Shown: positions 15,000 to 51,976, numbered from the stretch's first letter. The stretch is 64,000 bases of DNA from an uncultured Candidatus Rokubacteria bacterium (GCA_963776725.1 CAVZOE010000021.1:431931-495930); one strand, 5' to 3'. Notes: generated from the letters alone by a model not told the origin. Program-made: numbers and translations.

Positions 15000-15030
15000 A
15001 TCGACGAGCGACACGACAAGGAGATTCAGT

Positions 15031-16134: not shown

Positions 16135-16197
16135 GAGAGGCCGGGGAACGCCGGCCCGCCCGCCGGCATCTATTCAGGCAGGAGCCTCGCGCACACC

Positions 16198-16955: not shown

Positions 16956-17001
16956 TGAGCCGCTCACGGATCAGCCGTTCACTCACTGCCGAGAGTGCAA
17001 G

Positions 17002-17526: not shown

Positions 17527-17857
17527 TCGCCGGGCGCTCGCCTCTCTGGCCGCCGCGCTGGGTGCGCTCGCCTGCTGCTTGGGCCCCAGCGCGGCGGTGG
17601 AGACCCCCCAGGCCACCACGCACACGGTGGTCATGGACGCCGTCAGCTTCACGCCCGGCGTGCTGACGGTGAAGAGGGGCGATTCGATCGTGTGGCGGAA
17701 CCAGGACCCGTTTCCCCACACGGCGACCTCGAGCGCCTTCGACTCGCAGAGCATCGCGCCCGGTCAATCCTGGACCTACACGGCGAACACCCGGGGAGAG
17801 TTCTCCTACGTGTGCACCTTCCACCCGACGATGAAGGGGATGCTGCGCGTTCAGTAG
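17492..17857 (+). CDS. Cupredoxin (plastocyanin/azurin-like blue copper protein), likely lipoprotein
   Basis: The N-terminus contains ..LACC... The Cu ligands are H..C-T-F-H-P-x-M-K-G in the C-terminal VCTFHPTMKG. Confidence 0.7.
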   Translation: MPRRSSRRSASSRRALASLAAALGALACCLGPSAAVETPQATTHTVVMDAVSFTPGVLTVKRGDSIVWRNQDPFPHTATSSAFDSQSIAPGQSWTYTANTRGEFSYVCTFHPTMKGMLRVQ

Positions 17858-17870
17858 CAGGCGTGCGGCC

Positions 17871-21184: not shown

Positions 21185-21259
21185 GCTCTGGCCACGCTCA
21201 CCCTGAACCAGAACGGGGGCCTTCGTCAACCGTGGCGGAGGGAAGGCTATAATCCGGCC

Positions 21260-21664
21260 ATGGACGACGCGGCCATCGAGCAGGCGCTGCGTGCTTTCTT
21301 CGGGAGCCAGGCGCCCGAGGTCATCGCCGCCTATCTGTTCGGGAGCGTCGCCCGCGGCACCTCCCGTACCACGAGCGACGTCGACGTGGCCATCCTGCTC
21401 GCGCGGCCGCCGGTGGCCGAACTCGCCGGCTTACCCCTGGATCTCGAAGGCGACCTCGAGCGCCTCCTCGGGATGCCCGCCCAGGTGGTCATCCTCAATC
21501 GCGCTCCCGCGGATCTGGTCCATCGGGTACTCCGCGACGGCAAGCTGCTCGTCGACCGGAACCCTTCCGTGCGCATTGCGTTCGAGGTGCGCGCGCGGAA
21601 CGAGTTCTTCGATCTCAAGCCGGTGCTCGACCGGTATCGAGCGGTCCGCGGCCCCGGCCGGTGA
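21260..21664 (+). CDS. mntA: Nucleotidyltransferase-domain antitoxin (MNT), type VII toxin-antitoxin system
   Basis: The active-site motif is ..LFGSVARGTSRTTSDVDVAIL.. (GSxxRG..DxD). The stop overlaps the start of the next gene (GTGA). Confidence 0.75.
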   Translation: MDDAAIEQALRAFFGSQAPEVIAAYLFGSVARGTSRTTSDVDVAILLARPPVAELAGLPLDLEGDLERLLGMPAQVVILNRAPADLVHRVLRDGKLLVDRNPSVRIAFEVRARNEFFDLKPVLDRYRAVRGPGR

Positions 21665-22071
21665 CCGACCGCGAGCTCATCGCCAAGAAGCTGGCCCTCA
21701 TCGAGACGTGCATTCAGCAACTGCGCCAGCTGGCCCGGCCGGCGGCCATCGCCACCGACATACGGGAGGAGCGCTTCGTCGAGCACACGCTGCAGATCGC
21801 CATTCAGGCGGCGCTCGACGTGGCCTCACACATCGTCTCGGACGAGCGCCTGGGCGAGCCGCGCACCAACCGCGAGCTGTTCGATCTCCTGGAGCGCCAG
21901 GCGTGGGTGGGGCCAGAGCAGGCCGCCACCATGCGGAGGATGGTCGGCGTTCGCAACCTCCTGGTGCACGGGTACGAGATCGTCGACGTCAGGATCGTGG
22001 TCGAGATCGTCGAGCACCGCCTGGACGATCTGCTGGGGTTCGTCGCTGCGATCCGGACGCGGCTCGGCTGA
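21661..22071 (+). CDS. hepT: HepT-like HEPN-domain toxin (DUF86), type VII toxin-antitoxin system
   Basis: The HEPN motif is R-N-L-L-V-H-G-Y (Rx4HxY). The GTG start overlaps the upstream stop. Confidence 0.75.
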   Translation: MTDRELIAKKLALIETCIQQLRQLARPAAIATDIREERFVEHTLQIAIQAALDVASHIVSDERLGEPRTNRELFDLLERQAWVGPEQAATMRRMVGVRNLLVHGYEIVDVRIVVEIVEHRLDDLLGFVAAIRTRLG

Positions 22072-22119
22072 TCCGAGGGCCGGCCAGCCCGACGGCATCG
22101 CTCGCCGCCGGCCCCTAGA

Positions 22120-24843
22120 TTGCCTGCGATGCGCGTGACCATCCTGCCGTCCGGCGCGCTCCACGCCGACCCGACGCCCGGCGATGACGAGCCGAGTGAC
22201 GGTCTGTCCGCCGCCGCGCGGGCCCGGGTCGCTCGCGCCTTCGCGCGGGGGCCCGGCCACGCTCTGCTCGACCTCGGCGCGACCGAGCTCGATGCACCCC
22301 TCTCACCGGCGCTCGCATTCCTGCGGGACATCGGCCGCGCGTTCGTCACCCGGCTCCGCGCCGTGCCCGACCTCGAAGAGCGGCGCGAGCGGGTCGAGGT
22401 CGATTGCCCGCCGGACGAGCGCGCCCGGCTGGCCGGTGCCGTCCCGCCCATGGACGGCGGCGAGTACGTCGATGCCGACTGGGTCGCCGCGCGCTGGGCC
22501 GACCTCCATCGCGCCTTCGCCGAGGAGATCCGCGCGCACCGCGGCTCCGTCGGAGACTGGCTCAGCGCACGCCATCCCTCGTGGCACACGGTCGGCAAGG
22601 TGTGCCTGCACCTGGCCGAGAACCGCGGGGACGACGATCGTCCCTTCGCCTTCCTCGCCACCTACGCCGTGCGGGCGGGCGCCGGCGGCAAGATGCAGCA
22701 CCGCCCGCTGGGGCGCGCGCTCGAGGAGTCCTCCGCGCGCGGCGACCGACAAGCGCTGCTCCACCTCCTGGTCCCGCTGCAGCGCGCCGCGGAACAGCAC
22801 GCCTGGCTGGGCGAGCTGATCGACTCCGGCGAGGTGTACGAGGCGATGGCGTGGACGCCGGCCGAGGCCCATCGCTTCCTGCGCGCCATCCCGGCGTTCG
22901 AGGCGGCCGGGCTGGTCGTGCGCGTGCCCGACTGGTGGCGCCCGCGACGCCCGCCGCGGCCCGAGGTCACCGTGCGCGTCGGCGAAAAGAAGCCGAGTGT
23001 CGCTCGGCATGGACGCCCTGCTCGACTTCTCGGTCGCCGTGACGCTGGGCGACGACAAGCTCACCGCCGCCGAGGTGCGCCAGCTCATGGCGTCGTCGGG
23101 CGGACTGGTGCGGCTGCGCGGGCAATGGGTCGAGCTCGATCGCGAGCGGCTGCGTGAGGTGCTCGACCACTGGGAGCACGTGCGGCGGCAGGCGGAGGAC
23201 GGTGGCGTCTCGTTCCTCGACGGCATGCGGCTGCTGGCTGGTGCGGCGCGGACCGACGACGAGGCCGTGGCGCTGCAGGCGGGCGAGGGCTGGTCGCGCG
23301 TCGAGGCCGGCGCCTGGCTCGCGCGTACGCTCGCCGGTCTGCGCGGCCCGGACGGGCTCGCGGCGGCCGACCCGGGCGCGGACCTTCGTGGCACCCTGCG
23401 GCCCTATCAGAAGGTCGGCGTGTCGTGGCTCGCGTTCGCCTCGTCGCTGCGCCTCGGCGTCTGCCTGGCCGACGACATGGGGCTCGGCAAGACGATCCAG
23501 GTGCTGGGCCTGCTGCTCCTGCACAAGCGGCGCGCGCGGGCCGGCGAGCCGCCCCATCTGCTCGTGGTGCCGGCCTCGCTGCTCGCCAACTGGCAGGCCG
23601 AGATCGAGCGCTTCGCGCCGTCGTTGACGACGCTGGTCGCGCATCCCTCCTCCATGCCGTCGCGCCAGATCGCCGAGCTGGCCGGCGCCGATCTCGGCGC
23701 CACCGATCTCGTCATCACCACCTACGGAACGCTGGGGCGCGTCGAGGCGCTCCGGGCGCGCGAGTGGTCGCTGGTCATCCTCGACGAGGCGCAGGCGATC
23801 AAGAACCCCGGCGCCCGGCAGACGCGGGCGGTCAAGGCGCTGAAGGCGCGGGCGCGCATCGCGCTCACCGGCACGCCCGTCGAGAACCGCCTCGGCGATC
23901 TGTGGTCGATCTTCGACTTCCTCGATCCGGGCCTGCTCGGCTCCGCGCGCGAGTTCTCGGCGTTCGTCAAGCGACTCGCCGAGCGCCCGGACGAGACCTA
24001 CGCGCCGCTGCGTCGCCTGATCCAGCCCTATCTGCTGCGCCGCCTCAAGACCGACCGCGCGGTCGTCGCCGACCTGCCCGACAAGACCGAGGTGAAGGCG
24101 TTCTGTCTGCTGTCCGGCCCGCAGGCCGGCGCTCTACCAGCAGACCGTCGACGAGCTCGAGCGCGCCATCGCGACCCTCACGCAGGGCATCGAGCGGCGC
24201 GGCCTCGTCCTGGCCTACCTCATGCGCTTCAAGCAGATCTGCAATCACCCGGCGCACTTGCTCGGTGACGCGCGTGTGGGACGAGGCGGGCAGCGGCAAG
24301 CTCGCGCGCCTGCGCGAGATCGTCGAGGCGGTCGCGGCGAAGCAGGAAAAGGTGCTCGTGTTCACGCAGTTTCGCGAGGCCACCGAGCCGCTGGCGGCGT
24401 TCCTCACCGATGTGTTCGGGCGGCCCGGGCTCGTCCTGCACGGCAGCACGCCCGTCCGGGCCCGCGGGGGGCTCGTGCAGCGCTTCCAGGAGGACGCGAC
24501 GGTACCGTTCTTCGTGCTGTCCGTGAAGGCCGGCGGCACGCGGCCTCAACCTCACCGCGGCGTCGCACGTGGTGCACTTCGACCGGTGGTGGAATCCCGC
24601 GGTCGAGGATCAGGCGACCGACCGCGCCTACCGCATCGGCCAGCACCAGAACGTGCTCGTGCACAAGCTCGTGTGCCGCGGCACCGTCGAGGAGCGTATC
24701 GATCGGCTCATCGAGGACAAGCAGACGATGGTGCGCGGCGTCCTGGCCGGTGGCGGCGAGACCCTGCTGACCGAGATGAGCGACGACGAGCTGATGGCCA
24801 TGGTGGCGCTCGACCTGCGGCGGGCCACGGCCGAAGCGTGAGA
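22120..24843 (+). CDS. SNF2-family DEAD/DEAH helicase (RapA/HepA-like) with a long N-terminal domain, at least 3 frameshifts
   Basis: Motifs are ..LRPYQKVGVSWLAF..LADDMGLGKTIQ.., ..LVILDEAQAIKNP.., ..ALTGTPVENRLGDLWS.. and a C-terminal helicase domain ..RAYRIGQHQNVLVHKLVCRGTVEERI... The reading switches frames near 22990, 24120 and 24540. Confidence 0.7.
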
Positions 24844-24854
24844 TAGGCAACGCG

Positions 24855-25664
24855 ATGGCCCGATACGACGACGACGGCTGGGCCTACTACCCGCCCTACG
24901 TGTCGGTGGCGGATAAAAAAGCGCAGGGAGCCCGGGCGCTGGCCAAGCTCTTGAAGAAGGGCAAGCGGGTCGCCGAACCGGTCGAGATCACGCACCGCAA
25001 GCGGCAGCTCACCACCACGTTCTGGGGCAAGGCCTGGTCCGACAACCTCGCGCGCTACGCCGACCTCGTCAACCGCCTGCCGCGCGGTCGGGCGTACCTG
25101 AGCAATGGCTCGGTCCTCGACCTGGCGATCGCCGGAGGGCGAGTCGAGGCCTACGTGGCCGGCAGCGAGCTGTACCGGGTGACGATCAGCATGGCCCCCC
25201 TGGCGAAGGCGCGCTGGCGGCGCGTCGTCACGCGCTGCACCGGCCGCATCGGCTCGCTCGTCGGACTGCTGCGCGGCGAGCTGTCCGACGACGTGCTCGC
25301 CGTGCTGACCGACGCCGAGGACGGCCTGTTTCCCGAGCCACGCGAGATGAAGCTCGACTGCTCGTGCCCGGACGCCGCCGAGGTGTGCAAGCACGTCGCG
25401 GCGGTGCTCTACGGCGTGGGCGTCCGCCTCGACGCCCGGCCGGAGCTGTTCTTCGTGCTGCGCCAGGTGGACCAGGCCGAGCTGCTCAGCTCGGCGACCG
25501 CCGGCGCCGTGTCGCGCGCGCGGCCGGCGGCGGGCAAGCGCATCGCCGATGACCGCCTGTCGGCGGTGTTCGGGATCGAGCTGGAAGACGTCCCGCCACG
25601 GGCGGACCGTCCGTCACGTTCGAACAAGCGCCCGCGCACGCCGGCCTCCCGCGTCAAGCGTTGA
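24855..25664 (+). CDS. SWIM zinc-finger domain protein
   Basis: The CxCxnCxH motif is ..LDCSCPDAAEVCKHVAAVLYG... It lies 12 nt after the SNF2 gene. Confidence 0.7.
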   Translation: MARYDDDGWAYYPPYVSVADKKAQGARALAKLLKKGKRVAEPVEITHRKRQLTTTFWGKAWSDNLARYADLVNRLPRGRAYLSNGSVLDLAIAGGRVEAYVAGSELYRVTISMAPLAKARWRRVVTRCTGRIGSLVGLLRGELSDDVLAVLTDAEDGLFPEPREMKLDCSCPDAAEVCKHVAAVLYGVGVRLDARPELFFVLRQVDQAELLSSATAGAVSRARPAAGKRIADDRLSAVFGIELEDVPPRADRPSRSNKRPRTPASRVKR

Positions 25665-30308: not shown

Positions 30309-31190
30309 ATGAAGATCCGCATCGGTGTGGGAGCGGCCGGCGCATCCGCGACGCCGGCGGCGCTGGGCGAGCTGGTGGCGAGCATCGACGAGCTGGGCTT
30401 CGATTCGCTCTGGCTGTCGGAAGTCCTGACCGGGCCCGTGCTCGATCCCGTCGTGGGCCTGGCGTGGGCGGCGGCCAGCAACCCGCGGGTGAAGCTCGGC
30501 ACCACGATGCTGCTGCCCGGGCGCAACGTCCTGCGCCTGGCCAAGCAGCTCGCGAGCCTGGACGTGCTGTGCCACGGGCGGCTGCTGGTGACGCTGGTGC
30601 CCGGCCTCACCTACCCGCCGGAGCGCGAGGCGATCGGCGTGGATCCCAAGCGCCGGGGCGCGTTCATCGACGAGGCGCTGCCGCTGCTGCGGCGGCTGTG
30701 GGCGGGCGAGACGGTGAGCCACGAGGGCGCCGTCGGCACCTTGCAGGGCGTCAAGCTCTCGCCCCTGCCGATCCAGCGCCCGCTCGAGGTGTGGCTGGGC
30801 GGCACGGTGCCCGCCGCCCTCGAGCGCTGCGGCCGGCTCTCGGATGGCTGGCTGCCGTCGCTGTGCACGCCCGACGAGGCGGCGGCGGGGCGCGTGGTGA
30901 TCGACAAGGCCGCGGCGGAGGCGGGCCGCTCGATCAGCGGCGAGCATTTCGGCATGAGCATCGGCTACGCGCGCGAGGCGATCGATCCGGCGACCGCGCG
31001 CACGATGGCCGCCCGGCGGCCGCGCTCGCTCGAGCTCACGCCGGTGGGGCTGCCGGCCCTGCGTCAGCTCATCGAGCGCTTCATCGCCGTGGGCTTCTCG
31101 AAGTTCGTCCTGCGCCCGGTGGTCCCGCCGGCCTCCTGGCGCGCCGAGCTGCAGGCGCTGGCCGGCGCGGTGGGCGATCTGCAGACCTAG
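30309..31190 (+). CDS. LLM-class F420-dependent oxidoreductase (second copy)
   Basis: The N-terminus is MKIRIGVG.. and the protein has similar architecture to 20267..21184. Confidence 0.65.
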   Translation: MKIRIGVGAAGASATPAALGELVASIDELGFDSLWLSEVLTGPVLDPVVGLAWAAASNPRVKLGTTMLLPGRNVLRLAKQLASLDVLCHGRLLVTLVPGLTYPPEREAIGVDPKRRGAFIDEALPLLRRLWAGETVSHEGAVGTLQGVKLSPLPIQRPLEVWLGGTVPAALERCGRLSDGWLPSLCTPDEAAAGRVVIDKAAAEAGRSISGEHFGMSIGYAREAIDPATARTMAARRPRSLELTPVGLPALRQLIERFIAVGFSKFVLRPVVPPASWRAELQALAGAVGDLQT

Positions 31191-31205
31191 ACCCGCTCCG
31201 GCGCC

Positions 31206-32168
31206 TCACTTCCCGGGCGTCGGAATCTGCATCAGCAGATTGCTGCCGGTTCCCGTGACGAACTGCGGCAGCCGCCCATCCCACTTCGCGAGATATTGCT
31301 GCTGGATCATCACGGGCGTCAGCGACTGCGTGACCTTGGCGTTGTACTCCGACTCCGCCGCCGCGCGCAGGCGCGTCGCCGCGGCTTCACCCTCGGCCCG
31401 GGCCTGCAGGGCCGCGCCCTCGCCGCGCTCCTTGGCCACCTTGGATTCGGCCTCGCGCTTGGCCTGGTCGACCTCGTAGCGCTTCTGCTCGGCCACCTGC
31501 TGGGCGATCTGCTTGCGCTCGACGGCCTGCTCGAAGTCCTTGTCGAAGCGAATGTCCTTGATGGAGACCTCGGTCACCTGGATGCCGTACTTGGCCAGCC
31601 ACTTCGTCAGCCCGTCCTGCACGTCCGCCTTGATCTTCGGACGCTGCTGCAGGATGTCGTTGGCCGCGTGGACGGCGGTCTGCGCCTTCAGCACCTCGGC
31701 CGCCGCCGGATCGATGATCGACTGCTCGTAGCGCAGGCCGACCGTGCGGTAGACCTCGGGGGCGCGGTCGCCGATCAGCCGGAAGTTCAGCGCCATCACC
31801 GCGTGGACGGCCTGGATGTCCACCGACGCCGCGTCGTACTTGGCCTCGTGCTTCTGCACGCGCGTGTCCATCTGGATCACGTCCTTGTAGGGCATGACCA
31901 GGTGCAGGCCGTTGAAGAGCGGGTCCTTCTCCACGTTGCCGAACACGGTCACCACGCCCACGTGCCCGGAGTCGACGACCACGAAGCTCGACACGAGGAT
32001 GATGAGCAGGCCGAGCGCCACGCCCAGCACCTGCACCGCGCGGCCCACGGTGATCCACGGCACCGGCCGGTGCCCGGCCTCGCGCACCTGCGCCGCCATG
32101 GCCAGCAGCGCCCGGCCCACGACGATTCCGCCGACGATCAGCAGCAACGCGAAGATCAGCTTGCTCAT
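31206..32168 (-). CDS. SPFH/band-7 (prohibitin-like) membrane protein
   Basis: An N-terminal TM segment is followed by the PHB domain ..VVDSGHVGVVTVFGNV.. and a C-terminal coiled-coil region rich in A/E/K/R. Confidence 0.75.
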   Translation of the reverse strand: MSKLIFALLLIVGGIVVGRALLAMAAQVREAGHRPVPWITVGRAVQVLGVALGLLIILVSSFVVVDSGHVGVVTVFGNVEKDPLFNGLHLVMPYKDVIQMDTRVQKHEAKYDAASVDIQAVHAVMALNFRLIGDRAPEVYRTVGLRYEQSIIDPAAAEVLKAQTAVHAANDILQQRPKIKADVQDGLTKWLAKYGIQVTEVSIKDIRFDKDFEQAVERKQIAQQVAEQKRYEVDQAKREAESKVAKERGEGAALQARAEGEAAATRLRAAAESEYNAKVTQSLTPVMIQQQYLAKWDGRLPQFVTGTGSNLLMQIPTPGK

Positions 32169-32224
32169 GGTCCCCTCCCCGGCCGTGGTGAGCCGGCCCT
32201 GGTACGTGAGCGGCTTCGCCTCGA

Positions 32225-33138
32225 TCAGACGCGCGAGAGCTGGCTGCCGATGAAGCCGCGCATGAGCCCGATCGCCTTGTCGGTATCCGCGCTGGCGGTG
32301 CCGATGAAGCCGTGCCGCGCTCCCGGCACGTGCGTGCGCTCGATGGCTCCGCCGGCCTTGCCGGTAGGCCGCGAAGAACGCGTCGGTGATGGCGGCGGGG
32401 ACGTTGTCGTCGAGCTCGGGCTGCGCGAGCCAGGCCGGCGGCAGCACGCGGGCCTCGCCGGACGACACCACGCGCGTCACGCTGGCCTGCGCCATCGCCG
32501 CCTCGTCCGCGAAGTAACCGTGATGGGCGTCGATCAGGCGCTTGGCCTGAAAGCCCGTCGCCGTCGGCGGCTCGTCCTGGCGCGACAGCACGTAGCGATA
32601 GCGGGCCAGCGGGTCCGCGACCGGATAGAGCGCGATGACGAACAGGACCGAGTCGTCGGCCGGGCCCGCGCCGAGCGCGCCGTCCGGCAGGACGATCGGC
32701 GTGCCGGCGTGCTCGGGCGCCCCCGGCTTCACGGCCTGCAGGAGCGCCAGCTGGCCGCCGCTGGAGCTGCCCACGATGCCGACGCGACGCGGCATCGACA
32801 CCCAGGGGCTGTGCGTGGGCGCGCACGTAGCGCACGCCGGCGGCCACGTCCGCGCTGGCCGCCGGATGCTTGTGCTCGGGGCCCTGACGAAAGTCGAGCG
32901 AGACGACGACCAGTCCGCTGGCGGCCAGGGCCCGGCCGTGGACGGCGCCGCTCGTGCGATCGTTCCGGCTCCAGGCGCCGCCGTGGACGTCGACCAGCGC
33001 GGCGAGCGGCGCGGCCGGCTCGCCGCGCGGACGGTACACGCGCGCCAGGAGCTCGACGCCGCCCGGCCGGGCAAATGGCACATCGCTCTCGTCGACTTCG
33101 TAGGGCGCGCTCGGGTCGAAGCGAATGCTCACGGCCAT
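32225..33138 (-). CDS. Alpha/beta-hydrolase esterase, at least 2 frameshifts
   Basis: ..LVDVHGGAWS.. is followed by ..VGIVGSSSGGQLAL.. (GxSxG), with a C-terminal ..VPGARHGF.. Confidence 0.55.
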
Positions 33139-33201
33139 CTGGGCGTTCTCCTTTTCGCTGACGCGATCGTCGGCTTGCGAATCGGTCACCGGGCTTGGGC
33201 C

Positions 33202-34017
33202 CTCACGGTCGGACGGCCGGCGCGTCCATCTTCATCCCCGCCGCGCGCCACATCAGATAGAGCTCGAGGTCGACGAGCTCGGGCGCGCCGTACTCGTAGG
33301 GCTCCGCGCGCATGCCCGATCAGACAGTTGCGCAGCCGACGCTCCAGCGAGCCGAGGCCCTGCCACTCGAGGCGATAGAGCGGGTAGCCGGTCGGGTGCG
33401 CCTGCGGGATGACGTTGCCGGCGAGCTGCCGGCCCCAGTTGTCGTCGTGACACTGGCTGCAGGCGAGGTTGAGCTGGCCCTGGCGCCGATCGAAGGTGGC
33501 CCGGCCGGCGTCGAGGAACGGCTGCGTGCGCGCGTCGATCGCGACGTCGATCGGCAGGCCGCGCGACTGGCGCGCGACGTAGGCGGTCAGCGCGAGCAGC
33601 TCGCGGCTTTCGTAGGCGAGCGGCGGCGCCTGCTGCCGGTCGACGCGGCAGGCGTTGATGCGCTGCTCGAGGGTGATCGGCCGCCCGCGGGCGGCGTCGA
33701 ACGCCGGATGGCGCGCGGCGACACCCTTCATGCTCGCGCGGGCATCGCCGTGGCAGTCGGCGCAGGCCCGGCCGGCGGCGCCGATCTTCCGGTTCCACAG
33801 CGCCTCGCCCTCGAGCACCCAGAGCATGGCCGGGATTGGCGGTGTCGTCGTCCTGCATCGCGCGCGTCTCGCGGCTCATGAAGCTCGTAGCCGGAGCGGC
33901 GCTCGGCGCGCGGAATCTCGCCGGCGAAGGCCGACACCGCCATCGCGATCAGGACGCCGACCACGGCCGACGACGCGCCAGCGGGCGACGCCGCGGGCGA
34001 CTCCCGGAGGCCGCCAT
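33202..34017 (-). CDS. soxA: SoxA, diheme c-type cytochrome of the thiosulfate-oxidation system (frameshifts)
   Basis: Two CxxCH motifs are present (CADCH, CSQCH). The N-terminal region reads ..SGYEL/MSRETRAMQDDDTANP..LWVLEGEALW.. and the C-terminal region reads ..LRNCLIG/MRAEPYEYGAPELVDLELYL... Confidence 0.65.
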
Positions 34018-34341
34018 TCAATCGACCGCGATCGTGGCGCGACTCCGTCACCGAGAAGCCGTTGTCGCCGCGTCCACTGGAACGCGAGGGTGCCGCTCTC
34101 GGTGGCGACCGTCGAGAACGCGATGAAGGGATTGGCGGCGATCGCCGGGTAGAGCTCGGCGCGGAAGACCTCCGTGCCGTTGTAGGTGCAGACGAACCGC
34201 CGGATGATGTCGCGCGGGATCGGCGCGCCGAGCTGGGTGCGGCGATAGCCGGTCTCCATCGGGTGCGAGATCAGCGTCTTGATCTCGATGATCTCGCCGC
34301 GCTCGGGCCCGCGCCGGCACGTTGATCAGCGCGCGCGCCAC
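34018..34341 (-). CDS. soxZ: SoxZ, sulfur-carrier complex subunit (frameshifts)
   Basis: Motifs are ..EIIEIKTLISHPMETGYRR.. and ..PFIAFSTVATESGTLAFQW... The GTG start overlaps the soxY stop. Confidence 0.65.
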
Positions 34342-34829
34342 GGTCTAGAGCGTCCTCGAGGCACGCGGCGAGCGTGACGACGACGTCGGCGCGTGTCGGA
34401 CCAGAACGAGCCGTCGCTCAGCTCGGCGATCGCCGACGACCGTCTGGGTGTCGGCGAGGCGGATGCGGGTCGCCACGCGCGCCCGTCCGGCGCGCGGCCC
34501 GAGGCGGAAGCTCGACGACCTCGGGCTGCGGGTTCTTCTCGGTGAAGACGTGAATGGCCTTCACGTGGTCGGCCTCGGTCATCGGGCTCTCGACGCTGAC
34601 CGTGAGCGGCACGGTGTTGCCGTTCTCCGACAGCGGCGGCAGCTCGAGCTTCACCTTGCCCGTGTTGACGCGGGCCGCGCCGACCACCTTGCGGATGGCT
34701 TCCTGCATCGCCGCGGGCGTCGCGCGCGCCGGCGTCGACCGCGATGCATCGCCGCGAGCCCAGACCGGCCGCGGCGCCTCCGGCGGCCCGCAGGAATTCT
34801 CGCGACGCGATGCGCTGCACGCGGTCCAT
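34326..34829 (-). CDS. soxY: SoxY, sulfur-carrier protein with TAT signal (frameshifts; C-terminal Cys motif not cleanly recoverable)
   Basis: The TAT signal is MDRVQRIASREFLRAAGGAAAGLG. Further motifs are ..VKLELPPLSENGNTVPLTVSVESPMTEADHVKAIHVF.. and ..AIAELSDGSFWS.. Confidence 0.6.
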   Translation of the reverse strand: MDRVQRIASREFLRAAGGAAAGLGSRRCIAVDAGARDARGDAGSHPQGGRRGPRQHGQGEARAAAAVGERQHRAAHGQRREPDDRGRPREGHSRLHREEPAARGRRASASGRAPDGRAWRPASASPTPRRSSAIAELSDGSFWSDTRRRRRHARRVPRGRSRPWRAR

Positions 34830-35265
34830 TCAGTCCCTCAACGTCATCAGGAAGGCCACCACGTCCTCGATCTGCTCAGCGCTCAGGACCGGCTTGCCGC
34901 GCCAGGCCGGCGCCACCCGCGTCGAGCCCCTCGGTTCGATGATACGCCGGCATGATCGTCGTCGGGTTGATCCGGCCGGAATCGACGATCCGCAGCCGCA
35001 GCTGGCCCTCCGACCAGCGCGGCGCCCGCGCCCGCGCAGATCGGGCGCGAGATTGCCCTGGAACCGCTCCTCCGGGAAACGGCCCGCTGTGGCAGAGCAG
35101 GCACAGCCCGACCTGGCGGTTGGTGACGATGGCCCGCGCCGCGACCGGGATCGCCCGGCGGCGCCGGTGAGCGACGTGCGGGATCGCGTCGCTGCGTCCA
35201 CTGCGGCCAGCACCCGACCAGCGCAGCCAGACGCGCCGACGCACGACGGCCGCCGCCAATCTCAC
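34830..35265 (-). CDS. soxX: SoxX, monoheme c-type cytochrome (2 frameshifts)
   Basis: Motifs are ..[23 protein letters not shown], ..[27 protein letters not shown].. and ..[18 protein letters not shown]. The GTG start overlaps the fccB stop (GTGA). Confidence 0.6.
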
Positions 35266-36554
35266 CCGAAGACCTCGCCGGTGATCGTGCGGAACCAGGC
35301 CTCGGCGTAGGACCGCCTCGGCGGCGCGCGAGGCGCGCGGCGCGTCGCGCGGGCTGACGCCGCCCGCGCCGGGCACGTCGGCGAGCTGTCCGTTCGACGG
35401 CGCGTAGACGCCGGCGACCGAGATGCCGTAGTCGGGCGCGACCAGGCTGTAGCAGGTGTTGATCAGCTTGGGCGTGGGCGGCGCCGCCGCCCGTGAGCAG
35501 CAGCGCGACCGCCGCCGCGCACGTCTTGGCCTGCGAGTTCGCGGCGAAGGCCGACTTCGGCATGGCGCCGGCGATCGCGGCGTCGCCGATGACGTGGATG
35601 CTGGGCTGCAGCTTCGACTCGAACGTCGACCGGATCGATCGGGCACCAGCCGGTGCGGTCGGCGACGCCCGGCGACCTCGGCGATGCGGCCGGCCTTCTG
35701 CGGCGGGATGACGTTGGCCACCTCCGCCTTGTGCCGGCCGAAGTCGGTGACGAGCGTCCGGGTCGCGGCGTCGACCGAGGTGACGTTGCCGCCCTTGGAC
35801 AGCGGCACCCACTCGAGCAGGCCCGGGTAGAGCTCGGCCCAGGCCGCCTGGAACAGCCGCTGCTTGGAGAACGTGTCCTTGGCGTCGAGCACGATCAGCT
35901 TGGACTGCGGCTTCTTCGTCTTCAGATAGTGCGCGATCAGGCTCGCGCGCTCGTAGGGCCCGGGCGGGCAGCGGAACGGATTCGCCGGCGCCGAGATCAC
36001 GACGAGCCCGCCGTCCTGCATGGCCTCGAGCTGGCGGCGCAGCAGCAGCGTCTGCTCGCCCGCCTTCCAGGCATGCGGCATCTGCGCGGCCGCCGCCTCG
36101 TCGTAGCCCGGCAGCGCGCCCCAGCGGATGTCGATGCCGGGCGCCAGCACCAGCCGGTCGTAGGGCAGGCGCGTGCCGTCCGCGAGCGTGACCGACCGCG
36201 CCTGCGCGTCGACGCCGGTCGCGAGCTGTGCGGGCGATCGCGATGCCGTCGGCGGCGACATGCTCGTAGGTGAATTGCTGCGCGCGCAGCTCGCGCAGGC
36301 CGGCGATCACCGCGTTGCTGAACGGGCAGGCGGTGAACGTCGGGCTCGGCTCGACCAGGGTCACGGCGATGCGCGGGTCCGCCGTGCCGGAGCGCGCGGG
36401 CGCAGCTCGCGCCGGCGAAGCCGCCGCCGACGACCACGACCCGCGGGGCGGCGCCCTGCGCGAGCGTCGGGACCGGGAAGCACGGCGGCCGAGGCCGTGG
36501 CCGCGACACCGAGCTTCGAGGAACCGCGCGCGGATCCGTGTTCGTCGTCGTCAC
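35262..36554 (-). CDS. fccB: Flavocytochrome c sulfide dehydrogenase flavoprotein subunit (FccB/SoxF), at least 3 frameshifts
   Basis: The FAD-binding N-terminus is ..[13 protein letters not shown]... Further motifs are ..[17 protein letters not shown].., ..[21 protein letters not shown].. and ..[13 protein letters not shown]. Confidence 0.65.
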
Positions 36555-36844
36555 TTCTGCGCGGCGTACCAGGCGGCGATCGCCTGGATCTCGTCGTCGG
36601 TGAAGCCCTTGGCGATCCGGTCCATGACGGTGCCGGCCGCTGCCCCGAGCGGAAGTCCTGCATGGCCGCGACGATCGCGGCCCGATCGCTGCCCGGCGAG
36701 CCGCGGCACCGGCGACGTCACCCGCGCCGACGCGGGATGACATCCCGAGCACGACGCGGCGCCGGCCGGCGGCTCCGCCGATGCCGACGACGGCCGCGGC
36801 GATCGAGAGCGAGCCCCGATCGCCGCGGCCACGACCCTGCGCAT
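36551..36844 (-). CDS. Small monoheme c-type cytochrome (FccA/SoxE-like partner of FccB), frameshifted
   Basis: A single CSGCH motif is present. The C-terminus ..[25 protein letters not shown] is typical of class I cytochromes c. Confidence 0.5.
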   Translation of the reverse strand: MRRVVAAAIGARSRSPRPSSASAEPPAGAASCSGCHPASARVTSPVPRLAGQRSGRDRRGHAGLPLGAAAGTVMDRIAKGFTDDEIQAIAAWYAAQK

Positions 36845-36847
36845 CGC

Positions 36848-39046
36848 TTACACCATCGTGACGCCGTGGTTCTTCAGCGGGAACGTGCGGATGCGCTTGC
36901 CGGTCGCGGCGAAGATCGCGTTGAGCACCGCCGGCGCCGCCACGCAGATCGTCGGCTCGCCGACGCCGCCCCAGAATCCGCCCGACGGCATGACGATCGA
37001 CTCGACCTTCGGCATCTGCGCGATGCGCATCGAGTCGTAGGTGTCGAAGTTCGTCTGCTCGATGCGGCCGTCCTTGACCGTGCACTCCTCCATGAACAGC
37101 GCCGACAGGCCGTAGACGAACGAGCCGGCGATCTGGCGCTCGATCTGCGCCGGGTTGACCGCGTAGCCCGGATCGGTCGCGCAGACGATGCGATGCATCT
37201 TCGACCTTGTTGCCGTCCGCTGACCGAGATCTCGGCGCAGGCCGCGACGTAGCTGCCGAACGCCATCATCTGCGCGAGGCCGCGATAGACGCCCTGCGGC
37301 GCCGGCTTGCCCCAGCCCGCGCGGTCGGCCACCGCGTTCAGCACGGCGAGGTGCTTCGGGTGCTTGGTCATCAGCTTGCGGCGGAACTCGAGCGGATCCT
37401 GGCCGGCGGCATGCGCCAGCTCGTCCATGAAGCATTCGACGTAGATCGCGTTCTGGTTGATGTTCACGCCGCGCCAGAAGCCCGGCGGGACGTGCGGGTT
37501 GCGCATCGCGTGGTCGATCAGCAGGTTCGGGCACGCTGTAGCCGAACGCGAAGTCGCCGCTCGGGTCGAGACCCTGGAACGTGACCGGGTCGCGCCCGTC
37601 CTGGAGGCTTCTGCGGGCAGCACGGCGGCCAGGATCGACTGCCCCGAGATGCGCATGTGCAGGCCGGTGAGGTTGCCGCTCGCGTCGAGCGCGCCGATCA
37701 GCTTGCACTTGCGTGACCGGGTGATAGCGGCCGTGCGTCATGTCCTCTTCGCGCGTCCACAGCAGCTTCACCGGCGTGCCCGGGCATCTGCTTGGCGATC
37801 AGGACCGCCTGGCGTCACGTAGTCGTGGAACGCGCCGCGCCGGCCGAAGCCGCCGCCGAGGTTGATCTTGTAGACGTCGCACTTGTCGGCCGGCAGGCCG
37901 GACGCCGCCAGCACCGCCGCGAACGCCGCCTCGCCGTTCTGCGTCGGCACCCAGACCTCGCAGCGGTCGGCGCGTGTAGCGCGCCGTGGCGTTCATCGGC
38001 TCCATCGGCGCGTGGTTCTGGTACGGATAGGCGTAGACCGCCTCGACCTTCTTCGCCGCGCCGGCGATCGCGGCCTTCGCGTCGCCGTTCTTGTTGCCGA
38101 CGAAGGCCTGGTCGCGCGTCGAGGCCCGGCCTTCAGCATCTCGGCGATCGTCGCGCTCGAGACCTTGGCGTTCGGGCCCTCGTCCCACACGATCGGCAGC
38201 GCGTCGAGCGCGGTCTTGGCCTGCCACCAGGTGTCGGCGACGACCGCGACCGCGGTGTCGCCGACCTGCAGCGACGTTCTTGACGCCCGGCATGCCCTTG
38301 ACCTTGGCGGCGTCGAAGCTCTTCACCTTGCCGCCGAAGACCGGGCAGTCCTTGATCGCGGCGTTCAGCATGCCCGGCAGCTTGAGGTCGATGCCGTAGA
38401 CCTGCGTGCCGGTCACCTTGTCGACCGTGTCGAGGCGCTTGACCGGCTTGCCGATGATCTTCCAGTCCTTCGGGTCCTTGAGCGGCACGTCTTGTCGGCG
38501 GCGTCGAGCTTGGCGGCGGCCTCCGCGACCTTGCCGTAGGTGGTCGTGCGGCCCGAGGGCTTGTGCGTGATCACGCTGTTGGCGGCGCTGCACTCGGCGG
38601 CCGGCACCTTCCAGCCGTCGGCCGCGGCCTGGATCAGCATCATCGCGCGCGGTCGCGCCGCCCTGGCGCACGTACTCGTGCGACGTCGCGGATGCCGCGG
38701 CTGCCGCCGGTGGAGAAGTCGCCCCACACGCGCTTGCGCGCGACGCTCTGGCCGGGCGTCGGATATTCGGTCGTCACCTTCGACCAGTCGCACTCGAGCT
38801 CCTCGGCGCACCATCTGCGCGAGGCCGGTGAGCGTGCCCTGCCCCATCTCGGAGCGCGCGATGCGGATCACGACCGTGTCGTCCGGCCGGATCACGACCC
38901 AGGCGTTGATCTCGGGCGAGCCGTCCGCGGCGCGCACGACGGCTGGCGCCGAACGGGATGTTCAGGCCGAGGGCGAGCCCGCCGCCGAGCGGCGGCGGTG
39001 CCGACGATGAAGGAGCGGCGATTGATCTTCGGAGTCGTGCGATCAT
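36848..39046 (-). pseudogene. Molybdopterin-binding large subunit of a two-subunit molybdenum hydroxylase (IorB / aldehyde-oxidase / CoxL-like), TAT signal, many frameshifts
   Basis: GGGGGAGGAG RBS. The N-terminus reads ..KINRRSFIVGTAAA... Fragments on at least 5 frames include ..MRAADGSPEINAWVVIRPDDTVVIRIARSEMGQGTLTGLAQMV.. and ..GYAVNPAQIERQIAGSFVYGLSALFMEE.. Confidence 0.6.
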
Positions 39047-39057
39047 GGCTCCTCCCC

Positions 39058-39505
<448 letters not shown>

Positions 39506-39584
39506 TGGCGTTCCCCTCCCCGGGAGTCCGGTGGGAGAAATATCCAACAACGCGCTGCCGAAGGCAAGTTCGTGCTGGCGCGGG

Positions 39585-39785
39585 CTATTTCTTGATGTCG
39601 TTCACCGTGTTGTCGACCTTCCGGCCGGCCTTCTCGGCTGGGCCCTTGCCGATCAGCTTGTCCTGGCCGGTGACCTCGTCGACCTTCTCCCCGGCCTTCT
39701 GCATCGGGCCTCTCTCGCACCCCGTCAGACACAGACCAACGACCAGACTCGCCATCACCGCGGATGCCGCCATGCGCCTGTCCAT
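39585..39785 (-). CDS. Small lipoprotein (66 aa; lipobox LTGC), possible CsbD/YgdI-like stress lipoprotein
   Basis: GGGAGG RBS. The sequence is [23 protein letters not shown], followed by a K/E-rich tail. Confidence 0.5.
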
Positions 39786-40011
39786 GCTCTCGACCTCCCG
39801 GCTCCCGGCAGGGAGCGCGTGTAGTTTCGTTCGCTGGTTCCTGGTATACGCACGCCCCATGCCAGGCGGACCGCGCAGAACCGAGGAGCGACAGAACCGG
39901 GGCGCCCCGGGTTCCCCGGGGCGCGACGAGCGCCGGGGGGTTTGGGGGCCATGTCGGGGCCCCCATGTCAATAAACCAAAAAAGTCGTAGGATGCGGTCC
40001 GCGGAGGACCA

Positions 40012-40684
40012 ATGGACGGCGTCCACGATCTCGGCGGGATGCACGGCTTCGGCCCGGTGGAGCGCGAGGAGAACGAGCCGCCATTTCACGGGCGCTGGGA
40101 GGCCGTGGTCGTCGCCATCGAGGCGGCCATGCTCGCCGCGGGCTGCTACAACATCGACGAGTTCCGCCACGGGATCGAGCGCATGGACCCCGCGCACTAC
40201 CTCGGCTCGAGCTACTTCGAGCACTGGCTGGACGGTATCGCGCGCGTGCTCATGGAAAAGGGCGTCGTCGACGCCGCGGATCTCGACGCGCGGACCCGCC
40301 TCTTCCAGGAGCGGCCCGACGCCCCCCTCGGCGCGCCGCCCGCGGGGACGGGGCCGGCTGCCGGCGCCGGCCGGCGAGTCCTGACCTCCTTTCGCACGCC
40401 GGTGGCCCCGCCGCGGTTCGCCATCGGCTCGGCCGTGACGCACGCGCACCATGCACCCGGCCGGACACACCCGGCTGCCCCGCTATGCGCGGGGCAAGCG
40501 CGGCGTGATCGAGGCCCACCGCGGATTTCACGTCTTCCCTGACACCTCCGCGCACGGCCTCGGCGATCAACCGCAGCACGTCTACAGCGTGCGATTCGAG
40601 GCGCATGATCTCTGGGGGGAGGCCGCCGAGCCGAACCAGCGCATCTACATCGACCTCTGGGAGAGCTACCTGCTGGCCGCCTGA
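40012..40684 (+). CDS. nthB: Nitrile hydratase beta subunit, one frameshift near 40440
   Basis: [24 protein letters not shown].. continues to the C-terminal ..[19 protein letters not shown].. Confidence 0.7.
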
Positions 40685-40707
40685 CGGCAAAGCCGGGAGA
40701 TCAGCGC

Positions 40708-41308
40708 GTGGGCAAGAACCATCCGAACGTCGACGACTACGTCATCTCGCGCGTGCGAGCGCTCGAGTCGCTCCTGCTCGAGAAGGGCTTGCTGGCTCCC
40801 GACGCCGTCGACCGCGTCATCCGCCGGTACGAGGCCAGCACCGGGCCGATGCTGGGCGCGCGCGCGGTGGCGCGGGCGTGGCGGGACCCGGCCTACCGCC
40901 ATCGCCTGCTCAACGACCCGACGGCCGCGCTCGGCGACTTCGGCGTGACCTACGACCGTCTCGTCGTGGTGGAGAACACGCCGGCCCGTCACAACGTCGT
41001 CGTCTGCACGCTCTGCTCCTGCTACCCGTGGGACGTCATGGGCCTGCCGCCGACCTGGTACAAGATGCCCGCCTACCGCTCGCGCGCGGTGAGCGAGCCG
41101 CGCCAGGTGCTCGCCGAGTTCGGCTCGGTCGTGCCGCCCGAGCGCGAGATCCGCGTCTGGGACAGCTCCGCGGAGCTGCGCTACATGGTGCTGCCGATGG
41201 CGCCCGCCGGCGCTGCGCGGCTGGAGCGAGGACGCGCTCGCCGCGCACATCACGCGCGAGGCGCTGATCGGCGTGGCCGAGGTGCACTTGCCGGACGGAG
41301 CGCGCTGA
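40708..41308 (+). CDS. nthA: Nitrile hydratase alpha subunit, cobalt type (VCTLCSCY), one frameshift near 41215
   Basis: The metal-binding motif is ..[20 protein letters not shown]... Confidence 0.7.
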
Positions 41309-41313
41309 GCGCG

Positions 41314-42264
41314 ATGTACGAGCGGCGCCGCAATCTGGTGGCCCGGTCCGACGGCCGGATGGTCAACGTGGCGCGCTTTCGCGGCCAGCTCTTCGTGTGC
41401 GCCACCGGCTGCTGCTGCGGGCGCACCGGCGACGGGTTCGCGGCGGTGCCCACCGAGCTCTACCACGGCGAGTGGGAGCGGCGGCGGCTGCGCAACGTCG
41501 TGCATCTCACCATCGGCGGCTGCCTCGGCCCCTGCGCGCTGGCCAACGTCGTGCTCCTGCTCTTCGACGGCCAGGCGCAATGGTTTCACTCGATCGACTC
41601 CGAGACGCTGGTGCGGGCGCTCTACGATCACGTCGACGCCATGCTGGCGGCGGATGGCTGCCTGCCCGCGCCTGCTGCCCTGGCGCCGAACCACTTCACG
41701 GGATCGACATGGCAGCCGCGGCCGGACGGACAGCCGGTGGACGACTTCCGGCCGCGCCGCCCGGCGTCGAACGGAGTCGAGCGTCCATTCGAGGTGCTGG
41801 CGTCAGGCGACGCCTGCCACGGAGCCGAGACGCTGACCGCCGATGTGTGCCACCCGGCGTCCAGTGCGTGCGATCCGGCGCCCGCCGCGCCGCGCCGGGC
41901 GACGGCGCCGCTCGACGCCGAGGACGGGACCGCGGCGCGCCTTCATCGGCTGCTCACGAATCTCGGCGATGCGACGGTGCCGCGGCGCAACGGCGAGCTG
42001 GTCTTCGACGAGCCGTGGCAGGGTCGCGTCTTCGGGATGGCCGTCGCGCTCTCCGAGCAGGGCCTGCTGCCGTGGGAGGAGTTCCGCCAGGCGCTGATCG
42101 CCCAGATCGCCGCCGCCGAGGCGCGCGGCGGTGAGTTCCGCTACTACCACGCCTGGCTCGCCGCGTTCGAGCAGGTCCTGGCGGCGCGCGGCGCGGTGCG
42201 TCCGGAGGAGCTCGAGGAGACCACCTTCCAGTTCGAGTTCGGCGAGCGCGACGAGGTCTACTGA
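41314..42264 (+). CDS. Fusion protein: N-terminal thioredoxin-like [2Fe-2S] ferredoxin domain plus C-terminal nitrile hydratase accessory (beta-homologue/activator) domain
   Basis: The N-terminal part reads ..[33 protein letters not shown]... The C-terminal part reads ..[50 protein letters not shown]... The 316-aa product is intact. Confidence 0.6.
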
Positions 42265-42283
42265 CGCTCGACCGAAGCCGAGG

Positions 42284-50868: not shown

Positions 50869-50878
50869 GGAGACCAGG

Positions 50879-51973: not shown

Positions 51974-51976
51974 GGG

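Follow-up and report, generated by a model that had tools for sequence, protein, structure and literature searches.

What does a compact cluster of sox-like genes do in an uncultured Candidatus Rokubacteria bacterium if neither SoxB nor SoxCD is encoded beside it? The cluster lies in a stretch of 64,000 nucleotides (GCA_963776725.1 CAVZOE010000021.1:431931-495930, hereafter the window) as six co-directional minus-strand genes at 36844..33203, which an earlier note had assigned to a cytochrome c, FccB, SoxX, SoxY, SoxZ and SoxA and had interpreted as an incomplete or branched Sox pathway or a decaying island. The gene identities and positions are borne out by matches to NCBIfam and Pfam HMMs and by visible motifs, and all the motifs that had been quoted are present: CSGCH in the cytochrome, the FccB motif, CLLCH in SoxX, VESPMTE in SoxY, HPMETG in SoxZ and both CADCH and CSQCH in SoxA. 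Neither of the two interpretations is supported. Very probably, the six genes belong to a copy of an eight-gene periplasmic operon that is widespread among bacteria, iorA-iorB-cytc-fccB-soxX-soxY*-soxZ-soxA (39506..33203, minus strand), in which soxY* encodes a SoxY-related carrier. The operon is an ordinary member of a Sox-like module that has been catalogued but is uncharacterised, and its relation to the Sox thiosulfate-oxidising system is that of a paralogue and not of a truncated version. Taken as a whole, we moderately favour an explanation in which a conserved operon joins a Sox-like carrier to a molybdenum enzyme, works by the mechanism proposed below and has frame breaks of the assembly type.

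None of the six genes from cytc to soxA can be read in a single frame in the sequence as given, and gene coordinates were mapped from an intact relative (locus L001). The operon starts with an iorA-like gene (39058..39506, minus strand) for the small subunit of a xanthine-oxidase-family molybdenum hydroxylase, a protein of about 149 residues with two [2Fe-2S] domains (Pfam Fer2 and Fer2_2). The molybdopterin-binding large subunit is encoded by the iorB-like gene (36848..39046, minus strand; about 726 residues; Pfam MoCoBD_1 and MoCoBD_2), which carries 19 private 1-nt insertions and whose product has the N-terminal twin-arginine motif NRRSFIVG; the pair has the domain composition of a two-subunit molybdenum hydroxylase. 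Judged by the NCBIfam equivalogs, none of which IorB matches above its cutoff (XdhA comes closest, with 171 of the required 780 bits), the enzyme stands outside the characterised substrate-specific subfamilies for xanthine, aldehyde, CO, nicotinate and others. Its nearest solved structure is the large subunit of an aldehyde dehydrogenase, 8gy3_C, to which it aligns in full length (residues 5-719, E 1.3e-70). Like the two-subunit IorAB enzymes and membrane-bound aldehyde dehydrogenases (8GY3), the operon combines this large subunit with two [2Fe-2S] domains and no FAD subunit; unlike them, it encodes no dedicated multihaem cytochrome subunit and passes no curated equivalog. The flanks of the cluster had been described as an esterase and a molybdenum hydroxylase, and both identities hold (Abhydrolase_3/BD-FAE for the esterase; Fer2_2, MoCoBD_1 and MoCoBD_2 for the hydroxylase). 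The hydroxylase is no mere flank, however, but belongs to the operon, and no other gene accompanies the sox-like genes as constantly.

Between iorB and soxX lies a flavocytochrome c pair. The flavoprotein's putative partner is a small monohaem c-type cytochrome of about 96 residues (36551..36844, minus strand; 2 private insertions), and as a candidate cytochrome subunit of a flavocytochrome c sulfide dehydrogenase (FCSD) it combines a CSGCH motif, a gene in front of fccB with a GTGA overlap, an arrangement conserved in Rokubacteria and Alphaproteobacteria loci, and Pfam scores below the cutoffs (Cytochrom_C, 19.6 bits; Cytochrome_CBB3, 22.3 bits). The FccB/SoxF-type flavoprotein (35262..36554, minus strand; about 427 residues; 7 private insertions) starts with a GTG that overlaps the cytochrome stop codon and contains the central and flavin-binding domains of FCSD (FCSD_central PF21706, 166 bits; FCSD-flav_bind PF09242, 79 bits). 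It matches the solved flavoproteins 5n1t_A (E 4e-149) and 1fcd_A (E 3.5e-124), is about 65% identical to the former as estimated by eye, and shares with it three cysteine motifs, including NTCYS; we take these conserved cysteines, from what is known of 1FCD, to be the FAD link and a redox pair. The pair resembles FCSD/FccAB (5N1T, 3VRD, 1FCD) and SoxEF in the full-length flavoprotein match, the three cysteine motifs and the candidate c-type cytochrome gene directly before fccB. It differs from FCSD/FccAB in its short monohaem cytochrome, FccA of Allochromatium being dihaem, and in being embedded between iorB and soxX.

The SoxX-type monohaem cytochrome (34830..35265, minus strand; about 142 residues; 5 private insertions) has the CLLCH motif and, with 81.3 bits, exceeds the TIGR04485 cutoff of 61. 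The SoxZ-type carrier partner with HPMETG (34018..34341, minus strand; about 106 residues; PF08770; 3 private insertions) reaches 85.3 bits for TIGR04490, whose cutoff is 76, and the dihaem SoxA-type cytochrome with CADCH and CSQCH (33203..34017, minus strand; about 260 residues; stop codon at 33205-33203; 4 private insertions) reaches 231 bits for TIGR04484, with a cutoff of 110. SoxA aligns to 1h31_A (E 8.4e-53) with its two CxxCH motifs, the cysteine positions of the two axial ligands and the arginine before the second cysteine all in register, and by this alignment none of the catalytic features of canonical dihaem SoxA is missing. Canonical SoxXA, with its CxxCH haems and cysteine axial ligands, is in this respect fully represented. 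The compact, coupled junctions that had been reported were seen at the first three boundaries, namely GTGA overlaps at cytc/fccB (36554-36551) and at fccB/soxX (35265-35262, with soxX starting at GTG) and a TGA followed directly by ATG at soxX/soxY (34830/34829), and L001 has the same junctions at all three. At soxZ/soxA, where an overlap had been claimed, the genes are only adjacent, since stop and ATG abut at 34018/34017. An inserted base makes the soxY/soxZ junction unreadable in the present sequence; once one base is deleted, the junction reads ...AACLEDA followed by TAG, with a GTG three bases later.

The carrier differs from that of canonical Sox. SoxY* (34345..34829, minus strand; PF13501; C-terminus ...VVVTLAACLEDA) is encoded by a gene with 4 private insertions, whose stop codon is hidden by one more surplus base. 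After stitching by hand it scores 207.6 bits, and after alignment-based correction 213.8 bits, for NCBIfam TIGR04487, "SoxY-related AACIE arm protein" (cutoff 172), and it fails the true-SoxY model TIGR04488 (116.6 bits against a cutoff of 125). Its arm reads AACLE in place of GGCGG, and the arm cysteine aligns with the carrier cysteine of Paracoccus pantotrophus SoxY (2ox5); SoxY* thus has both the score and the AAC(I/L/V)E-type arm of TIGR04487, and neither the arm nor the score of canonical SoxY. In all 77 related loci, the C-terminus of SoxY* is formed by xxC(L/V/T/F)E with 1-6 further residues. The earlier note had left open whether the missing GGCGG motif was a variant or a frameshift artefact: with the frames corrected, the odd C-terminus is a real variant, and SoxY* is in the separate family TIGR04487 with its AAC(L/I/V)E arm. 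Another family, TIGR04557, bears the name "quinoprotein dehydrogenase-associated SoxYZ-like carrier" and, going by that name only, is likewise a carrier tied to a periplasmic dehydrogenase and not to SoxB. Its members are fused SoxY-SoxZ proteins paired with a quinoprotein instead of a molybdenum enzyme, and SoxY* is not one of them because it scores 66.7 bits, below the cutoff of 140.

For comparison, 80 genome loci were retrieved, and the related loci among them were chosen by SoxA similarity of at least 68%, so that they are a biased sample of TIGR04487 members, which plasmid matches with 59-63% SoxY identity widen only modestly. All loci that extend far enough have the order iorA-iorB-[cytc-fccB]-soxX-soxY*-soxZ-soxA on one strand. 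An iorB homologue lies just upstream of the soxX genes on the same strand in 69 of 69 evaluable loci, in 49 of them with cytc and fccB in between and in 20 directly before soxX, and an iorA homologue precedes iorB wherever the sequence reaches that far. The loci span Rokubacteria, Alphaproteobacteria and Betaproteobacteria, and cultured Methylobacterium, Neorhizobium and Roseomonas are among them. Operons of the Betaproteobacteria are missing cytc and fccB; Roseomonas marmotae keeps all eight genes, in permuted order and with the arm GACVETG. Apart from extra iorAB paralogues, which occur near the operon in some lineages, no other genes are conserved around it. Searches with Paracoccus SoxB and SoxC by tblastn gave no match in the window, neither SoxB-type (5_nucleotid_C) nor SoxC-type (Oxidored_molyb) domains turned up when the remainder of the window was scanned with Pfam, in line with what had been claimed for the 64 kb, and tblastn detected no SoxB or SoxC homologue within 10 kb on either side of the related loci L001-L084. 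SoxB, and the SoxCD that is optional in canonical Sox and present in its complete version, are therefore absent from the window and from these loci with their flanks alike, and in all 69 evaluable loci the genes form a conserved unit of their own without SoxB, which, together with the TIGR04487 carrier, speaks against an incomplete or branched canonical Sox pathway.

A near relative among known systems is the canonical Sox system of Paracoccus (SoxXA, SoxYZ, SoxB and SoxCD), with which the window operon shares SoxXA-type haem motifs and cysteine ligands, SoxY and SoxZ with an aligned cysteine, and a periplasmic location. In contrast to it, the window operon has an AACLE instead of a GGCGG arm, is without SoxB and SoxCD and includes a xanthine-oxidase-family molybdenum enzyme, of which there is none in the Paracoccus cluster. 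Whereas the gene set and its conservation were observed, the reaction, its substrate and the part played by the molybdenum enzyme are inferred. The SoxXA-type cytochrome could oxidatively load the arm cysteine of SoxY*Z with a sulfur compound, a step for which we see the chances as evenly balanced; this compound would be either thiosulfate or else sulfide or sulfane sulfur that the FCSD delivers. It is possible, if doubtful, that the IorAB-type molybdenum enzyme would then process the loaded arm in place of SoxB/SoxCD, and electrons would exit via its pair of [2Fe-2S] clusters to the c-type cytochromes that the operon itself encodes. To our knowledge, no xanthine-oxidase-family enzyme acts on a protein-bound sulfur substrate, and the IorAB step is for this reason without precedent. 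We tentatively hypothesize that SoxYZ with an AAC(x)E arm, a SoxXA-type cytochrome and IorAB form an undescribed periplasmic carrier-protein pathway, in which the xanthine-oxidase-family enzyme acts on an arm-held substrate, replacing SoxB/SoxCD, or receives sulfur from the carrier.

Alternatively, IorAB may be an ordinary periplasmic dehydrogenase of aldehydes or N-heterocycles that is without its own cytochrome subunit and never meets the carrier; the genes would then be encoded together only since IorAB, the Sox-like proteins and FCSD all feed the same c-type cytochromes. The relationship of IorB to a membrane-bound aldehyde dehydrogenase is consistent with such a shared outlet, as is the absence from the operon of the dedicated cytochrome c subunit that these dehydrogenases normally have, and in some lineages extra iorAB paralogues cluster near the operon. 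Yet the pairing of iorAB with the sox-like genes holds in every evaluable locus over distant lineages and survives the permutation of gene order in Roseomonas, and canonical Sox clusters have c-type cytochromes but attract no iorAB, the canonical GGCGG loci of Paracoccus (L085) and Indioceanicola (L087) being without it. We consider this explanation unlikely.

A truncated canonical system, in which SoxXA and SoxYZ serve a SoxB (and SoxCD, rDsr or sHdr) encoded elsewhere, would make the locus a standard split system with SoxEF/FCSD added. The equivalog scores of SoxX, SoxZ and SoxA and the canonical catalytic features of SoxA are in line with it, and in the Methylomirabilota thiosulfate-oxidising potential has been reported, with many genomes having extra sox paralogues dispersed away from the main cluster (PMC13500833). 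Against it stand the carrier, which falls short of the true-SoxY model and has an arm common to all 77 related loci, the lack of soxB and soxC within 10 kb of those loci, and the strict pairing with iorAB, and we regard it as quite improbable. Very improbable is also the converse arrangement, in which SoxXA*, FCSD and SoxY*Z serve IorAB by building an arm cysteine persulfide that would restore its terminal Mo=S ligand, a ligand that xanthine-oxidase-family enzymes need and that may be lost outside the cytoplasm. The invariable presence of at least one IorAB copy, and sometimes of several, the periplasmic location of all components and the lack of a sulfate-releasing enzyme fit this idea circumstantially, but it has no precedent and would be a costly apparatus for a repair job. 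The position of iorAB at the front of the operon, as expected of the main enzyme, is neutral in this regard.

The broken frames are very probably artefacts. Over the 6.5 kb of the operon there are 44 private single-base insertions and 6 deletions, compared with 0-3 private insertions in Illumina-assembled relatives and with 7 and 11 in two relatives whose contig names suggest long-read assemblies of Microflora Danica. With the insertions removed, eight full-length open reading frames result, with no internal stop in 1959 codons, a dN of 0.068 and a dN/dS of 0.21, which lies within the range of intact relatives (0.18-0.245). The inserted base equals the alternative allele of a flanking column in the relatives in 37 of 44 cases (11.1 +- 2.8 expected; none of 2000 permutations reached 37), a result partly biased by the aligner's gap placement. 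Across the window, 41 of 47 frameshift-like breaks are +1; they are clustered and also occur in unrelated genes, and a 1318-residue open reading frame in the same window is intact. The density of insertions is very uneven, which fits a mixed-strain consensus as the cause. From these patterns, the breaks are very probably single-base insertions introduced during consensus building, most likely in a mixed-strain long-read assembly, and the organism itself probably has the operon genes in unbroken form. A dead, pseudogenised island, suggested by the interruption of every operon gene but iorA and by a break density that peaks in the operon while parts of the window are clean, is scarcely credible given breaks that are almost only 1-nt insertions, mostly match a neighbouring site's alternative allele and recur at a lower rate in two long-read-looking assemblies, and given none of the internal stops, relaxed selection or mixed indel types of a pseudogene.

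The same operon is found in the cultured isolates Neorhizobium galegae and Methylobacterium sp. NMS14P, the latter carrying the identical eight genes in identical order on plasmid pNMS14P1 (NZ_CP087107.1, 492450-498744), where they are annotated as (2Fe-2S)-binding protein, molybdopterin cofactor-binding protein, cytochrome c, NAD(P)/FAD oxidoreductase, SoxX, AACIE-arm SoxY, SoxZ and SoxA. The arm type is shared (AACLEG there, AACLEDA in the window), whereas SoxY is only about 63% identical, the phylum is another one and the copy in the window has frame breaks of the assembly type. We found no published function for either copy, and a literature search retrieved no experiment or paper on the module (AACIE gave 0 matches, and sox combined with molybdenum enzyme nothing relevant). 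If the proposed pathway exists, it would represent a new type of reaction for the xanthine-oxidase family and, for soil bacteria as diverse as Rokubacteria, Xanthobacteraceae, Burkholderiales, Methylobacterium and Rhizobiaceae, a second Sox-like route of wide distribution.

Eight genes on the minus strand (39506–33203) make up the operon iorA-iorB-cytc-fccB-soxX-soxY*-soxZ-soxA. The window has a G+C content of ~70%, and without correction none of the six downstream genes can be read in one frame. Nevertheless, the six-gene cluster proposed in the earlier note is present, and every motif listed for it is visible once minus-strand positions 36950 to 33100 are translated in all three frames. With gene ends mapped onto the window from an intact relative, the cytochrome c gene (36844–36551) encodes a CSGCH motif, fccB (35262–36554, minus strand) the FCSD_central and FCSD-flav_bind domains, soxX (35265–34830) a CLLCH motif, soxY (34829 to ~34345) a VESPMTE motif within a PF13501 protein, soxZ (34341–34018) an HPMETG motif and soxA (34017–33203) both CADCH and CSQCH. 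SoxX scores 81 bits on TIGR04485 (cutoff 61), SoxZ 85 bits on TIGR04490 (cutoff 76) and SoxA 231 bits on TIGR04484 (cutoff 110); these scores, like the Pfam matches of SoxY and the flavoprotein, were obtained with hand-stitched proteins joined from different frames. Both GTGA overlaps and the TGA-ATG junction were confirmed and recur in the intact relative, L001; soxZ and soxA, said to overlap, are adjacent without doing so. The genes are packed tightly and coupled in translation. The operon starts with iorA (39506–39058, minus strand), coding for a protein with Fer2/Fer2_2 domains, followed by iorB (39046–36848, minus strand), whose product contains MoCoBD_1/2 domains and the twin-arginine motif NRRSFIVG. 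A scan of 31000–40200 for promoters and terminators was uninformative, giving no promoter-like site and terminator-like sites on the plus strand only, and searches of the complete window for Rfam families and tRNAs gave no match, hence no riboswitch ahead of iorA.

The SoxY-related carrier, SoxY*, ends in ...VVVTLAACLEDA, with the TAG stop masked by one extra base. Its score on TIGR04487, the model for the "SoxY-related AACIE arm protein", is 207.6 bits for the stitched and 213.8 bits for the corrected protein (cutoff 172), and on the true-SoxY model TIGR04488 it reaches 116.6 bits, below the cutoff of 125. The cysteine of the arm aligns with the carrier cysteine of the solved Paracoccus SoxY (VTLAAC versus VTIGGC). 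An arm of the type (A/G/S)-(A/S)-C-(L/V/T/F)-E, with 1–6 further residues behind it, is present in all 77 related loci with a readable C-terminus, and a GGCGG arm in none of them. The lack of GGCGG noticed from the sequence is thus borne out as a real, catalogued variant, and the window copy is an ordinary, if noisy, member of a catalogued (TIGR04487) but functionally uncharacterised kind. A study of the SoxY family discarded sequences without the GGC motif (PMC11237559), and hence the AACIE-arm family lies outside that study.

The two-subunit molybdenum hydroxylase of the xanthine oxidase family encoded by iorAB had been taken for a mere flank. A scan with the SoxA protein, restricted to one genome per species, yielded 80 loci, and in every locus extending far enough, genes for a small [2Fe-2S] subunit and a large subunit that binds molybdopterin lie upstream of the sox-like genes on the same strand (69/69 evaluable loci by a strict count). 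The cytochrome/flavoprotein pair lies between iorB and soxX in 49 of these loci, and in 20, mostly betaproteobacterial, iorB directly precedes soxX. The hydroxylase is therefore part of the operon, and the locus belongs with it. In contrast, the two canonical GGCGG loci examined, from Paracoccus and Indioceanicola, are without iorAB. The closest loci are found in Rokubacteria/Methylomirabilota metagenome-assembled genomes (MAGs; 83–90% protein and 86–88% DNA identity), followed in similarity by loci from Beta- and Alphaproteobacteria, and Bradyrhizobium MAGs also carry the operon (L080; P0190). Among cultured isolates, NCBI-annotated copies are located on plasmid pNMS14P1 of Methylobacterium sp. 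NMS14P and plasmid pNgVX of Neorhizobium galegae. Roseomonas marmotae p1318-3 (L086, NZ_CP061094.1 35342–41491) has the same eight genes in permuted order, the cytochrome/flavoprotein pair coming behind soxA, and its carrier arm reads GACVETG. At the N. galegae locus (L083, CP090555.1 ~88600–91100) the iorB homolog matches in two pieces and is unlisted in the plasmid protein table, possibly a strain-specific pseudogene or a gap in the table, and the small cytochrome was not found there. Clustering of flanking ORFs revealed nothing conserved beyond the operon except extra iorAB paralogues, which lie upstream of the operon in L042, L043, L046, L048, L051, L056 and L059 and downstream of soxA in L028, L029, L038 and L045. 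In loci of the Xanthobacteraceae type, two or three iorAB pairs stand in tandem, and the farther pair is the most Rokubacteria-like (72–78%), and in Burkholderiales-type loci a 34%-identical pair directly follows soxA.

The remaining components retain the residues of their solved counterparts. Aligned with its dihaem Rhodovulum counterpart (1h31_A, E 8e-53), SoxA keeps both CxxCH motifs, the cysteines at the axial-ligand positions (INACR, RNC) and the arginine preceding the second cysteine. Among solved sulfide dehydrogenases, the flavoprotein matches 5n1t_A (E 4e-149) and 1fcd_A (E 3.5e-124), including NTCYS and their remaining cysteine motifs, which we assign to flavin attachment and the redox disulfide. 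The nearest solved structure to IorB, over its full length, is 8gy3_C (E 1.3e-70) from a membrane-bound aldehyde dehydrogenase, where it forms the large subunit, and none of the curated substrate-specific models was passed by IorB. Based on signal and twin-arginine motifs, all parts of the operon are predicted to be periplasmic. We hypothesize, at roughly even odds, that the SoxX and SoxA cytochromes of the operon (SoxXA*) would oxidatively load a sulfur substrate onto the SoxY*Z arm cysteine, and this substrate could be thiosulfate, or sulfur that the flavocytochrome derives from sulfide. More tentatively, and with the chances against it, the molybdenum enzyme might stand in for SoxB/SoxCD in processing the loaded arm and pass electrons via its iron-sulfur clusters to the operon cytochromes.

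Somewhat less likely than such arm processing is that the operon combines two functions that are independent of each other apart from their common cytochromes. Cross-talk of the carrier with a canonical SoxB encoded elsewhere in the genome is improbable. Searches by tblastn with Paracoccus SoxB and SoxC gave no hit in the window or in the comparison loci L001–L084 with ±10 kb flanks, and Pfam scans of the rest of the window found no Sox, Dsr or sulfite-oxidase-type genes, in agreement with the absence of soxB and soxCD from the window that had been reported before. The variant arm, these negative searches and the tie of the operon to iorAB argue against an incomplete or branched Sox system, and the locus is not a partial Sox pathway. 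That the sox-like proteins serve to keep the hydroxylase supplied with sulfur for its Mo=S ligand is very unlikely.

The frame breaks were analyzed in a DNA multiple alignment of region 33150–39650 with nine related loci, in which the indels private to the window are 44 insertions of one base, 2 of two bases and 6 deletions of one base. When the window is read codon by codon against L001 with the private insertions skipped, the 1959 aligned codons contain 0 stops and encode 88.5% identical amino acids, and dN (0.068) and dN/dS (0.21) are within the ranges of intact relatives against L001 (dN 0.057–0.089, dN/dS 0.18–0.245). Deleting the private insertions gives eight full-length proteins with a terminal stop only. 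True decay of the locus, the second reading offered by the earlier note, retains hardly any credibility, as the stops and excess of non-synonymous change expected in a pseudogene with so many indels are not seen and such a gene should also show deletions, here far outnumbered by insertions. The locus is in all likelihood intact, and its frame breaks, most probably artefacts of assembly, should not be taken as biology.

The inserted base equals a neighboring base in only 9 of 44 cases, and the insertions are therefore not homopolymer slips. In 37/44 cases it equals an alternative allele of the relatives in the flanking column (expected 11.1 ± 2.8; 37 was reached in 0/2000 permutations), as would result from a consensus in which both alleles of polymorphic sites are written, for instance in a mixed-strain long-read assembly. 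The test is partly biased by gap placement and thus no more than supportive. Private 1-nt insertions number 0–3 in six short-read-assembled relatives, and 11 (L010) and 7 (L081) in 6.5 kb of two related Rokubacteria contigs, whose names suggest Microflora Danica long-read assemblies. Gene calls in L081 are fragmented, with iorB split into 264 + 393 aa. Across the whole window, a codon-phase model placed 47 frameshift-like breaks, 41 of them +1, an approximate count since the GC3-phase HMM put 45.5–49 kb on the wrong strand, where the ORF list has an intact minus-strand gene. The +1 breaks cluster at about 5500–6300, 15000–17500, 23000–24600, 32300–39300 and 58500–59600 and hit mutually unrelated genes (M20 peptidase, amidohydrolase, ECF sigma factor, SNF2 helicase, hydrolases), and stretches of several kb, including a 1318-aa ORF at 45622–49578, are free of breaks. 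Such clustering suggests a consensus that is faulty locally, for instance where strains are mixed, and not uniform read error.

Several other features were seen in the window. Nitrile hydratase beta and alpha subunits plus one more ORF (40013–42283, plus strand) are divergent from iorA; as a pointer to thiocyanate, the nitrile hydratase genes (40.0–41.3 kb) were rejected as coincidental, this neighborhood being found in no relative. The 1318-aa protein (minus strand) is secreted and has about a dozen tandem ~85-aa repeats with paired cysteines each (...GTGSGTVTS.P.GI.CG..C...F..GT.VTLTA.P..GS.F..W.GC....C.VTM....TVTATF). Three tandem TRAP-type DctP solute-binding paralogues, each with a twin-arginine-like leader (49788–53063, plus strand), are followed by an ABC_sub_bind protein (53064–54046). 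A nucleotidyltransferase/HepT-like toxin-antitoxin pair immediately precedes a large helicase of the SNF2 family (DUF3670, SNF2-rel_dom, Helicase_C; 21189–25596, plus strand). An ECF sigma factor, a DUF4142 protein and a cupredoxin-like protein, all with +1 breaks, are encoded in series at 16052–17882 (plus strand), and in the relative L082 a Sigma70_r2 protein also adjoins a DUF4142 protein.

Literature searches for the AACIE arm found no paper, those combining sox-like genes with a xanthine-oxidase-family molybdenum enzyme or sox genes with Rokubacteria returned nothing relevant, and no paper on the function of the module was found. A 2026 survey reports about a thousand soxA, soxX, soxY and soxZ "paralogues" off sox clusters without assigned function (PMC13500833). 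In B. diazoefficiens, soxY1 is essential and soxY2 dispensable for thiosulfate oxidation (PMC5748708); a homolog search with the SoxY* of a Bradyrhizobium MAG gave no named B. diazoefficiens protein. Identical operons are already annotated in public genomes, where automatic annotation calls most genes of the module ordinary SoxX, SoxZ, SoxA and sometimes SoxY. The R. marmotae carrier is named ordinary SoxY by NCBI, which shows that the two carrier types cannot be told apart reliably by annotation. The module is widespread and routinely misread as Sox, and it may consequently be counted as such in soil-metagenome surveys of "thiosulfate oxidation potential". Its presence in cultured isolates of Methylobacterium, Neorhizobium and Roseomonas makes the operon directly accessible to genetics and carrier mass spectrometry.
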